Assembly: GCA_028713655.1 (NCBI GenBank)
Contig: JAQTNW010000009.1
Span: 8,474-72,473, forward strand
Length of the DNA: 64,000 nucleotides
Direction: 5' to 3'
Source: Candidatus Methylacidiphilales bacterium
GTDB taxonomy: Bacteria; Verrucomicrobiota; Verrucomicrobiia; Methylacidiphilales; JAAUTS01
The position numbers were made by a program, and so were the translations under genes. The notes under the pieces were generated by a model, which worked only from the letters and a program-made list of their open reading frames with translations, was not told the DNA's origin and made no database searches. This document shows, in pieces, positions 61,425 to 62,690 of the stretch (the first letter of the stretch is position 1; each line of letters begins with the position of its first letter).

Positions 61425-61529
61425 GGGAAAAGGGGTCAAAGCATATTTCTACTCCTCTTTTCCTCAGCATCAGGGGGCACATTCACACCCGGGTTGGGGT
61501 GACTAAAATATGCTTTGACCCCTTTTCCC
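61425..61529. repeat. Perfect 24-bp inverted repeat with 57-nt spacer
   Basis: GGGAAAAGGGGTCAAAGCATATTT (61425-61448) and AAATATGCTTTGACCCCTTTTCCC (61506-61529). The right arm encodes the last 8 codons and the stop of the minus-strand desulfurase homolog. Confidence 0.9.
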
Positions 61530-62690
61530 CGGCGACATGTCCCGCAGCCGGGCCACGGCCTTCGCCGTTTTGGCGACCACAGAGCGGATGTCGTCTCCGG
61601 TTTGATCGGGGCCGGGACTGAATAAAATAGCGCCCAGCGCCAGATCAATCTCCACTCCCATCGCCTTCAAAACAGGGGAAATCTTCATGTTTTTTGAAAC
61701 ACAGCCTGTCGCTGCAGTCACGCTTACTCCGTTCAAATCCAGCAACAGCATCAAGGCCTCACCCTCAATGAACTCGAAACTGACATTCAAATGCCGGGGG
61801 TCCCGGTCAGGACCCGGCTCAGGCCCATTAAGTTTGATGTGCTGGATCTCATTCGTTAGCCCCTCCCATAATTGCAGGATAAGTTCCCGGCATTTCGCGG
61901 CCCGGTCTTGCATATGCTCTTTCGCGAGAATCGCCGCCACTCCCGCCCCGGCAATCGCCGCAACATTCAACGGCCCCGCCCGCAGGCCGTGCTCCTGCCT
62001 GCCTCCGTGAATCAGCGGCGCCAATTCCAGACCGCTTCTGCGATACAGCACCCCCGCTCCCTTGGGGCCAAAAAATCGGTGCGGCGACAAGCTCAGCAAA
62101 TCGACGCCCAGTTGGCCGACATCCGCCGACAACCAGCCGCCCCCGGTCGTGGCATCGCAAAAAACCGCCACTCCGCGTTCCCGGGCAATGCGCGCGATCT
62201 TCGCAACCGGCTGCACGGCGCCTGAATCGTGATTGCTCAAATGCGCGGCCACCAGCACCGTGTCCGGCCGAATGGCGGAAGCAATTTGCTCCGGGTTGAT
62301 AAAGCCTTTCGAATCAACCGGGACACGGGTCACCGTCCATCCTTGACGCTCCAGAAACGCCACCGATTCCATGACAGCGGGATGTTCCGCCTCCGAAAGC
62401 ACAAGGTGCCTGCCCTGCGCCGCACGGGCCTGGGCCAACCCTTTGATAGCCAGATTGCCGGCCTCAGTGCCGCTTGACGTGAAAATGATGGATTCAGTGT
62501 CGGAAGCTCCAAGCAGGCTTGCAAACGATGCCCGGGCCTGTTCAACCGCCTCTTTCGCTCTCAAGCCTTCGCGATGCAGGCTCGAAGGAAGCCCGCATTC
62601 ATCGGCCAAAAACGGCAGCATGGCTTCCCGGGCCTCGGCTGCAAGCGGCGTGGTGGCGAGATGGTCGAGATAGAGGCGTTGCGCAGGCAC
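61503..62690 (-). CDS. Class-V aminotransferase / cysteine desulfurase (IscS/NifS) homolog with Arg in place of the PLP-binding Lys
   Basis: [41 protein letters not shown] (canonical SGHKxYGPKG), ATGCVS (catalytic Cys loop). Confidence 0.85.
   Translation of the reverse strand: [395 protein letters not shown]

Follow-up and report, generated by a model that had tools for sequence, protein, structure and literature searches.

A desulfurase-fold gene with arginine at the Schiff-base position

The DNA considered here (the window) is a stretch of 64,000 nucleotides of contig JAQTNW010000009.1, from a metagenome-assembled genome of Methylacidiphilales (Verrucomicrobiota). Positions 61503 to 62690 of its minus strand carry an open reading frame (ORF) of 395 codons with a GTG start, in which a preliminary description, made from the letters alone, had recognized an IscS/NifS-type homolog; the ORF, its Pfam match, and fold comparison all agree with that assignment. 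The product has the IscS/NifS fold but carries arginine at the position of the lysine that binds pyridoxal 5'-phosphate (PLP), and we refer to it and its relatives as Arg-type proteins. It is identical to MDD5261133.1, which NCBI names "cysteine desulfurase family protein," and the JGI annotation, like that of NCBI, makes it a cysteine desulfurase. The Pfam match is to Aminotran_5 (PF00266; 1.9e-59), corresponding to fold-type I/aminotransferase class V. Among the NCBIfam equivalog models, those for NifS, IscS, and DndA scored best, and all of the models remained below their curated cutoffs (NifS, 360.3 versus 530.75; IscS, 303.5 versus 643.2; DndA, 302.9 versus 480).

An AlphaFold2 (AF2) model computed with an alignment of the Arg-type clade as input reached a predicted local distance difference test score (pLDDT) of 94.8 and a predicted template modeling score (pTM) of 0.93. 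The pLDDT fell below 85 only at the Cys loop (76 to 81 in the loop region) and at the C terminus; reduced values are usual for this flexible loop. In Foldseek comparisons, the model superposed on human NFS1, Escherichia coli IscS, and Archaeoglobus fulgidus IscS with template modeling (TM) scores of 0.90 to 0.93, and the sequence is 36 to 39% identical to solved desulfurases and up to ~46% identical to the nearest canonical representatives. The protein shares with canonical IscS, NifS, and NFS1 (EC 2.8.1.7) the fold, the dimer-type architecture, and the extended Cys loop. Its top matches among solved structures are near-identical 406-residue "cysteine desulfurase" variants (PDB 9wew, 9wep, 9wer, 9wf8, 9wfb, 9wfe, and 9wfy), at 316 bits versus 261 bits for E. 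coli IscS.

We also found, in another assembly (locus L118), a 93%-identical orthologue of the window gene with the same active-site residues. Over 386 codons, nonsynonymous divergence (dN) between the two genes is 0.034 and synonymous divergence (dS) is 0.34, and the dN/dS ratio of 0.10 points to strong purifying selection on the window gene, not to decay. In sum, the window gene is intact, evolves under purifying selection, and specifies a protein confidently predicted to have the class-I (IscS/NifS) cysteine-desulfurase fold.

Replacement of active-site residues around a conserved Cys loop

We placed the active-site residues by means of HMMER alignments to solved desulfurases and MAFFT alignments to E. 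coli IscS (11 of 11 landmark residues of the reference sequence sit at their published numbers). Both placements concur with the gapless alignment of the conserved block to E. coli IscS that had been proposed earlier. The Schiff-base lysine of the S/T-x-H-K motif (Lys206 in E. coli) is aligned without gaps to Arg205, encoded by CGA at 62076 to 62078 (minus strand, as are all features of the gene given below), so that the preliminary description had read both the residue and its codon correctly. Arginine is unable to form the internal aldimine. Both ligands of the PLP O3' atom are also replaced, Asn155 by His154 (62229 to 62231), which co-varies with Arg205 among the representatives, and Gln183 by Thr182 (62145 to 62147). 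Arg354, which binds the substrate α-carboxylate, is replaced by Leu356 (61623 to 61625; Leu, Ile, Val, or Met across the Arg clade). Thr243, which the partner subunit contributes as a ligand of the PLP phosphate, is replaced by Pro240 (61971 to 61973), a sublineage-specific change: the main clade has Thr, and within the window sublineage the position is Pro, Ser, or Met. The threonine at position 183 had been remarked on before; the changes at Asn155, Arg354, Thr243, and Lys105 (Pro104 in the window protein) are additional.

The stacking His, the Asp of DAT, and the Cys loop are retained, as had also been noted at the outset. His103 (E. coli His104, the PLP-stacking/general-base residue; 62382 to 62384) lies in AEHPAV and is followed by the clade-specific Pro104, and Asp179 (E. 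coli Asp180, the ligand of the pyridine N1; 62154 to 62156) lies in DAT and is invariant across the clade. Ser202-Pro203-His204 (62079 to 62087) preserve the phosphate-pocket residues of S-x-H-K, which here reads S-P-H-R, and the set of ring and phosphate ligands Thr75, His103, Asp179, Ser202, and His204 is conserved. The mobile catalytic-loop region (residues 321 to 340; 61671 to 61730) contains the invariant Cys330 (61701 to 61703). The loop has class-I length, but its motif is ATGCVS versus the consensus SSGSACTS, and it is basic (Lys333 and Lys336) where canonical enzymes have Gly or Glu. Read over 11 landmark sites, the window protein is THHDTSHRPCL, whereas canonical enzymes are THNDQSHKTCR.

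Lys206, Cys328, and His104 have assigned roles in desulfurase catalysis, and the lysine is needed for transaldimination and proton transfers in all fold-type I chemistry (PMC8300815). The loss of the substrate-carboxylate Arg and of both O3' ligands strengthens the case for inactivity, and we consider it probable that the window protein is not a desulfurase. With the replacements K206R, N155H, Q183T, and R354L, the ATGCVS loop, and scores under every NCBIfam equivalog cutoff, it departs from canonical IscS, NifS, and NFS1 in the defining features of a class-I cysteine desulfurase and, as far as sequence can tell, should not be filed under that name despite the database labels.

A clade of Arg-type proteins in Verrucomicrobiota

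Relatives were drawn from the 120 best homologues in a 5.8-billion-sequence database, from a phmmer search run without filters on 1.84 billion cluster representatives (9,619 hits at E ≤ 1e-30, the best 150 of which were analyzed for landmark residues), and from a scan of 185,579 species-representative genomes with a motif-seeded 12-sequence alignment (301 loci, the best 80 of which were examined). The best 150 phmmer matches contained two landmark groups, one canonical (THNDQSHKTCR) and one whose commonest variant is THHDASHRTCL. Between the two, Asn155, Gln183, Lys206, and Arg354 are replaced as a block, and Cys328, His104, and Asp180 are unchanged. The Schiff-base residue was Lys in 94 of 94 canonical representatives and Arg in 41 of 41 Arg-type representatives, a split that, in these alignments, is far beyond chance. 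Arg also occupies the site in 118 of the 120 closest homologues and in 79 of the 80 reference-genome loci, and it is invariant, as are the clade-specific Pro104 and Trp186, in an alignment of 38 sequences that are 38 to 61% identical. Together with the L118 orthologue, these counts answer the question, raised with the preliminary description, of whether the Lys-to-Arg change is conserved among orthologs. The signature of the clade is His or Tyr at 155, a residue other than Gln at 183, Arg at 206, and Leu, Ile, Val, or Met at 354, with Cys328, His104, and Asp180 kept; the window protein fits it. The modal landmark string of the clade is THHDASHRTCI. In 84 of 84 clade genes the Arg codon is CGN (CGT, 32; CGC, 22; CGG, 19; CGA, 11), and this use of all four CGN codons and no others points to synonymous turnover at a selected Arg that is always two steps from Lys.

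These data bear on whether the protein might still be an active cysteine desulfurase, with another Lys, or the Arg itself, substituting for the missing residue. The retention of Cys330, His103, and Asp179, the NCBI and JGI annotations, and a single clade member with Lys at the site (L085) would fit such a view. It is contradicted by the inability of Arg to form an aldimine, by the accompanying loss of Arg354, Asn155, and Gln183, and by equivalog scores far under the cutoffs. Furthermore, no position holds a conserved Lys peculiar to the Arg clade; loop position 336 comes closest (Lys in 61% and Arg in 34%). The interchangeable use of Lys and Arg there rules out a relocated Lys in the loop, and a Lys in the C-terminal tail of the main clade cannot explain the window protein and its subclade, which are tail-less yet keep the Arg under selection. 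With no such Lys in a fold that superposes on those of known desulfurases, nothing places a different Lys at the PLP site, and continued desulfurase activity appears very improbable.

The member with Lys, L085:10001-11155, encodes it as AAA (SPHKLYGPKG) and is otherwise Arg-type (His155, Ala183, and Ile354). This gene may have reverted or may represent an intermediate.

In neighbor-joining trees built without the signature columns, a canonical-free split holding a median of 37 of the 38 Arg-type representatives appeared in 196 of 199 bootstraps, and the window protein grouped with P0003 and P0005 in 198 of 200. All named members of the clade, the most divergent included, belong to Verrucomicrobiota (for example, "Candidatus Methylacidithermus pantelleriae" WP_174582512.1), as do nearly all of the best 80 of the 301 loci; the few other labels look like misbinned contigs. 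The Arg-type proteins are only ~50% identical to one another. On this comparative evidence, they are a coherent clade, present in ~300 species-representative genomes and so far seen only in Verrucomicrobiota. The literature searched, coverage of which was incomplete, yielded no account of a bacterial IscS clade with Arg in place of Lys.

Further Lys-less class-I homologues occur beyond the Verrucomicrobiota (the P0138 cluster in Nitrospirota, the P0193 cluster in Chloroflexota, and P0146, P0147, P0173, P0226, P0253, P0203, P0135, and P0175). Among the residues that they have in place of the Lys are R, T, Q, L, G, S, and V, and the loop Cys is present in every one. The Lys seems to have been lost repeatedly among class-I desulfurase homologues.

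The Arg-type gene usually occupies the IscS slot of an operon with IscU

Among the best 80 loci, the commonest arrangement was Rrf2-IscU-X-Mrp/ApbC, where X is the Arg-type gene (RUXM, 29 loci; RUX, 12; XM, 12; UX, 5; several arrangements are cut off by contig ends). Gene by gene, IscU is present upstream in 55 of the 80, Mrp/ApbC downstream in 49, and Rrf2 in 47, and annotated example operons continue with a small ORF, an A-type carrier (Fe-S_biosyn; IscA), and a 250-residue protein. The IscU adjoining X is fully canonical (Cys37, Asp39, Cys63, His105, Cys106, and LPPVK), which argues that the Lys-less protein fills the IscS slot of a genuine iron-sulfur (Fe-S) assembly operon. Like canonical IscS, proteins of the main clade have an IscS-type C-terminal helix (MSPMWDEFxRGxIDS; "SPxWxxFxxGxxDS").

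Two further features of these loci may be recorded. The gene order in the Arg-type operons (L009 to L088) is IscU then X, and that in canonical isc operons from metagenomes (L098, L100, and L102) is IscS then IscU. Helix α12 of the main clade is followed by a conserved 20-residue extension, PTGRGKSFSxHAAxVSGKxAH (L016, L020, L022, and ~60 other loci of L009 to L088), which is found neither in canonical IscS nor in the window protein.

At one locus, L055, a canonical NifS (THNDQSHKTCR) lies 8.5 kb from the Arg-type operon. NifS of this type is 84 to 92% identical across >120 verrucomicrobial clusters and thus unusually slow-evolving, which suggests that many members of the phylum have access to a canonical sulfur donor; the window protein is ~37% identical to verrucomicrobial NifS. 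When SufS and K-type NifS served as tblastn queries, neither the window nor the flanks showed another class-V gene, L055 excepted, and everything that a metagenome scan for close relatives brought up was a canonical Lys-type gene at ≤44% identity. In L055, the canonical NifS gene (L055:19576-20835) adjoins genes for sulfite reductase, CysH, CysD, and CysN (L055:14603-19404).

The window copy belongs to an IscU-detached sublineage

Both sequence and gene context mark the window copy as one of the more derived members of the clade, detached from IscU. The sublineage without an adjacent IscU consists of the window protein, L118, and P0002 to P0007. The last of these are its nearest relatives (59 to 62% identical), and their upstream IscU is missing; in the nearest subclade, the Rrf2-IscU-X-Mrp/ApbC operon is absent or partial. 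The sole conserved neighbor in the sublineage is Mrp/ApbC, which among the nearest-relative loci examined is present downstream in P0003, P0007, L009, L014, and L018 and not in P0005/L006 and L010. The P0002 to P0007 proteins stop just past "...KLRxL" and therefore have no helix α12, and P0003 to P0007 have no tail extension.

At 130 columns that are ≥95% conserved in the main clade, the window protein deviates 20 times, whereas main-clade members deviate 1.5 times on average and the subclade 33 to 37 times; most of the deviating columns are common to the P0003-to-P0007 subclade, which marks them as old derived states. Among these states is the loss of a basic patch: residues 217 to 222 (62025 to 62042) read RRSGLE where the main clade has RNRRAR and E. 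coli IscS has R220, R223, and R225. In E. coli, these three arginines are needed to bind CyaY, IscX, and ThiI (PMC2854127). IscU docks on helix α8, Glu347, and the C-terminal helix α12 (R379 to K391) of E. coli IscS, and IscS(Δ376-404) no longer binds IscU (PMC2854127).

At two subclade loci (L001:9334-10011 and L006:7397-8011), the place of IscU in the main clade is taken by a DUF3431 gene that runs 11 nucleotides into the start of the Arg-type gene.

Relationship to known Lys-less systems

The preliminary description had pointed to A. fulgidus IscS as an archaeal precedent without the Lys, and this precedent is real (PMC7585200; PDB 4eb5/4hvk/4r5f). A. fulgidus IscS (AF_0564; PDB 4EB5, 4EB7, and 4HVK; D199K mutant, 4R5F) has Asp in place of Lys and no desulfurase activity, and its Cys ligates a [2Fe-2S] cluster on IscU (PMC7585200; PMC13066941). 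Methanosarcina acetivorans IscS1 is also without the Lys (PMC7585200). The window protein resembles A. fulgidus IscS in its class-I fold (TM score of 0.92/0.95 to the window model), in having lost the Schiff-base Lys, Gln183 (Ala/Thr), and Arg354 (Leu in both) while keeping the loop Cys, His104, and Asp180, and in that its main-clade relatives are encoded beside IscU. The differences are equally clear. A. fulgidus IscS is archaeal, has Asp (SSND), keeps Asn155, and loses His205, whereas the Arg clade is bacterial, has an invariant Arg (SPHR), and shows the opposite pattern at the latter two positions. The Arg-type operon also contains Rrf2 and Mrp/ApbC, often followed by IscA, and its IscU has LPPVK; the window copy, for its part, has no IscU neighbor and lacks half of helix α12. 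The window protein scored 252 bits against A. fulgidus 4eb5, no better than the 261 bits against E. coli IscS, and the A. fulgidus-like representative P0212 joined the Arg clade in 1 of 199 bootstraps in trees whose deep nodes are poorly resolved, which makes an independent origin of the Arg clade likely.

The MIS (minimal iron-sulfur) system (MisS/MisU) is described as a two-gene system without carriers or chaperones that can use sulfide as a sulfur source (PMC13066941). The Arg-type and IscU genes likewise form an IscS-like plus IscU-like pair outside classical ISC and NIF; however, an Arg-type operon also includes Rrf2 and Mrp/ApbC, with IscA frequently next in line, and departs from that two-gene description. 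The role proposed below, that of a noncatalytic protein whose conserved Cys accepts a persulfide and passes it to a scaffold, would be analogous to that of SufE, SufU, and TusA, whose folds are unrelated.

Proposed function

The interpretation that we favor, with a probability of about 0.55 for the statement as a whole, is that the Arg-type protein assists Fe-S assembly without catalysis, either as a partner that offers its Cys loop or as a sulfur relay. The clade context, Rrf2-IscU-X-Mrp/ApbC, supports such a scaffold or partner role. With the Lys, the O3' ligands, and the substrate Arg all replaced, neither the internal aldimine nor productive cysteine binding should be possible, and the family would instead be a dimeric, noncatalytic partner of the scaffold machinery. 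By analogy with A. fulgidus IscS (Lys to Asp), the loop Cys would be presented as a persulfide acceptor or relay or as a transient ligand of the nascent cluster, and sulfur would be supplied in trans by canonical NifS, another desulfurase, or sulfide. The window copy probably keeps only the dimer and Cys-loop function, exercised with some partner protein. The preliminary description had proposed an inactive or altered protein, serving as a scaffold or a regulator; the residue losses and the operon of the clade speak for the inactive scaffold, and nothing supports the regulator.

Several observations weigh against this interpretation. Homologues of IscU, Mrp/ApbC, IscA, and Rrf2 are absent throughout the 64-kb window, so that every genomic link to Fe-S assembly is lacking there, and the L118 orthologue sits in a context unrelated to that of the window gene. 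A K-type and an Arg-type gene were seen on one contig once only (L055), and the exact Arg-clade bipartition was recovered in just 5 of 200 bootstraps, the cause being rogue deep branches. Finally, the site retains Thr75, His103, Asp179, Ser202, and His204 and an invariant Arg, although it is not evident that a dead site would need either.

This last point would allow noncovalent binding of a cofactor or other ligand, or new chemistry, and leads to an alternative in which the site has been remodeled: PLP, pyridoxamine phosphate, or another phosphorylated or anionic ligand would be held noncovalently, and Arg205/His154 together with Cys330 would run an altered reaction, for instance on a substrate without an α-carboxylate or by direct capture of sulfide or persulfide. 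The invariance of the Arg and the synonymous turnover of its codons are what such a site would predict, as are the conservation of His/Tyr155, Pro104, and Trp186, the kept ring and phosphate ligands, and the switch of the loop to a basic charge; moreover, A. fulgidus IscS, in which PLP was simply lost, has Asp at the position, and plain loss does not therefore demand Arg. However, all fold-type I chemistry requires the Lys (PMC8300815), the substrate-binding Arg has been lost along with both O3' ligands, and the phosphate ligand Thr243 has become Pro, Ser, or Met in the window sublineage. The retained ligands are also weak evidence, since A. fulgidus IscS, reported not to be a desulfurase, likewise keeps T76, H104, N155, D180, and S203. 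This is the strongest of the alternatives, but we regard a remodeled site as doubtful.

Class-I desulfurases are obligate dimers whose active sites are completed across the interface (PMC8300815), and an Arg-type protein could in principle be a pseudoenzyme modulator that has no part in cluster assembly itself and controls the flux of sulfur by heterodimerizing with canonical NifS or a different partner, or by titrating it in another way. A conserved canonical NifS coexists in the phylum, on the same contig in L055, and the window copy is detached from both IscU and Mrp. On the other hand, identity to verrucomicrobial NifS is only ~37%, the dominant operon partner is IscU and not NifS, and the protein has no regulatory domain; heterodimerization is unsupported, and we think a modulator unlikely.

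A more far-reaching reading, as a whole more possible than probable, is the following. Rather than being dead enzymes, Arg-type proteins may represent a new functional class and, with IscU and Mrp/ApbC, an undescribed bacterial Fe-S module into which NifS feeds in trans. The pocket formed by Arg205 and His154 beside the ring and phosphate ligands might bind a new ligand (sulfide, persulfide, or a noncovalent cofactor), and the basic Cys loop might hand on sulfur or a nascent cluster. The sublineage of the window gene, tail-less and detached from IscU, could then be a second neofunctionalization, directed towards Mrp/ApbC or another acceptor.

ISC-type Fe-S assembly is taken to depend on a cysteine desulfurase for the entry of sulfur, and, to our knowledge, the only studied exception is archaeal A. 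fulgidus IscS. In the Verrucomicrobiota sampled, an ISC-like operon with a Lys-less, invariant-Arg "IscS" and a separate, conserved canonical NifS would amount to a natural, phylum-wide split of the roles of IscS, with sulfur production on one side and scaffold partnership or Cys-loop delivery on the other. The Arg clade would thereby extend the known archaeal precedent, and the noncatalytic role would become directly testable in bacteria, for example with the "Ca. Methylacidithermus pantelleriae" protein; the window copy itself is an orphan with no adjacent partner gene in its 64 kb. Because Arg-type proteins are now named "cysteine desulfurase," they would be miscounted in metabolic reconstructions.

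A strain-specific C terminus at an inverted repeat

The window gene and its L118 orthologue begin to diverge exactly at a 24-nucleotide perfect inverted repeat. Its upstream arm (61506 to 61529) encodes the last eight codons (GKRGQSIF), just before the stop, and its downstream arm (61425 to 61448) follows after a 57-nucleotide spacer; the hairpin has a folding energy of −58.3 kcal/mol (z = −5.2). In the window protein, the repeat arm takes the place of the second half of the IscU-docking helix α12. L118 keeps ...MSVAWKEFHAGRLESKT where the window tail has been rewritten, and its C terminus ends ...REMSVAWKEFHAGRLESKT, a short α12 tail. Judging by this pair, the C-terminal rewrite is strain specific, unlike the Lys-to-Arg change. 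No significant remnant of the ancestral tail was found past the inverted repeat.

Candidate explanations for the inverted repeat are an insertion, a stability hairpin, and a small element with terminal inverted repeats. The arm has no other copy in the window and 0 matches in the metagenome contigs, the latter leaving a multicopy miniature inverted-repeat transposable element unsupported. An integron attC site was rejected because there is no GTTRRRY core at the hairpin, and an intrinsic terminator because no T-tract follows it.

The L118 gene has a TAGCCTGCATG motif repeated on either side (L118:1-136 and 1343-1480) and a DDE transposase gene (L118:1555-2868) 200 nucleotides downstream. With the unrelated flanks, the repeats and the transposase indicate that the locus has been rearranged between close relatives.

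The rewritten 3' end and the 20 deviations at conserved columns might suggest that the window gene carries a strain-specific lesion or a sequencing error or is a decaying pseudogene. For the Lys-to-Arg change this is refuted, since Arg is found in hundreds of genomes and the orthologues carry it, L118 having the whole active site unchanged at a dN/dS of 0.10. The frame is intact, the AF2 model is confident, and most of the deviating columns are common to the P0003-to-P0007 subclade, so that we find decay of the window gene scarcely credible.

Neighboring genes

The preliminary description had the window gene between lysC and a hypothetical gene, with no iscU beside it. The absence of IscU and the position of lysC (AA_kinase and ACT domains) upstream both hold; the hypothetical ORF probably does not. 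This ORF of 143 codons (61051 to 61482, minus strand) has no Pfam match, is rich in Arg and Pro, and has a lower GC content at third codon positions (0.56). It is probably not a gene, which would leave ~630 nucleotides of noncoding DNA between the window gene and a PEBP-family gene.

The region is ordinary chromosome, with genes for the PEBP-family protein, two receiver-domain proteins, a GT39-like protein, E and F proteins of type II secretion/type IV pilus systems, a Mur ligase, arginine decarboxylase, ParB, MutL, aconitase-family (LeuCD-like) proteins, and an LptF/LptG-family permease. The two receivers are consecutive stand-alone response-regulator receivers (59347 to 59811 and 59912 to 60343), the second of which overlaps by 4 nucleotides the start of the PEBP/YbhB-family gene (60340 to 60876), whose product looks secreted. 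On the minus strand, the 70-nucleotide spacer between lysC and the Arg-type ORF contains a sigma-70-like promoter match, TTAACA-18-TAAAAT (62724 to 62753), which agrees with the consensus at 10 of 12 positions and is a consensus match only.

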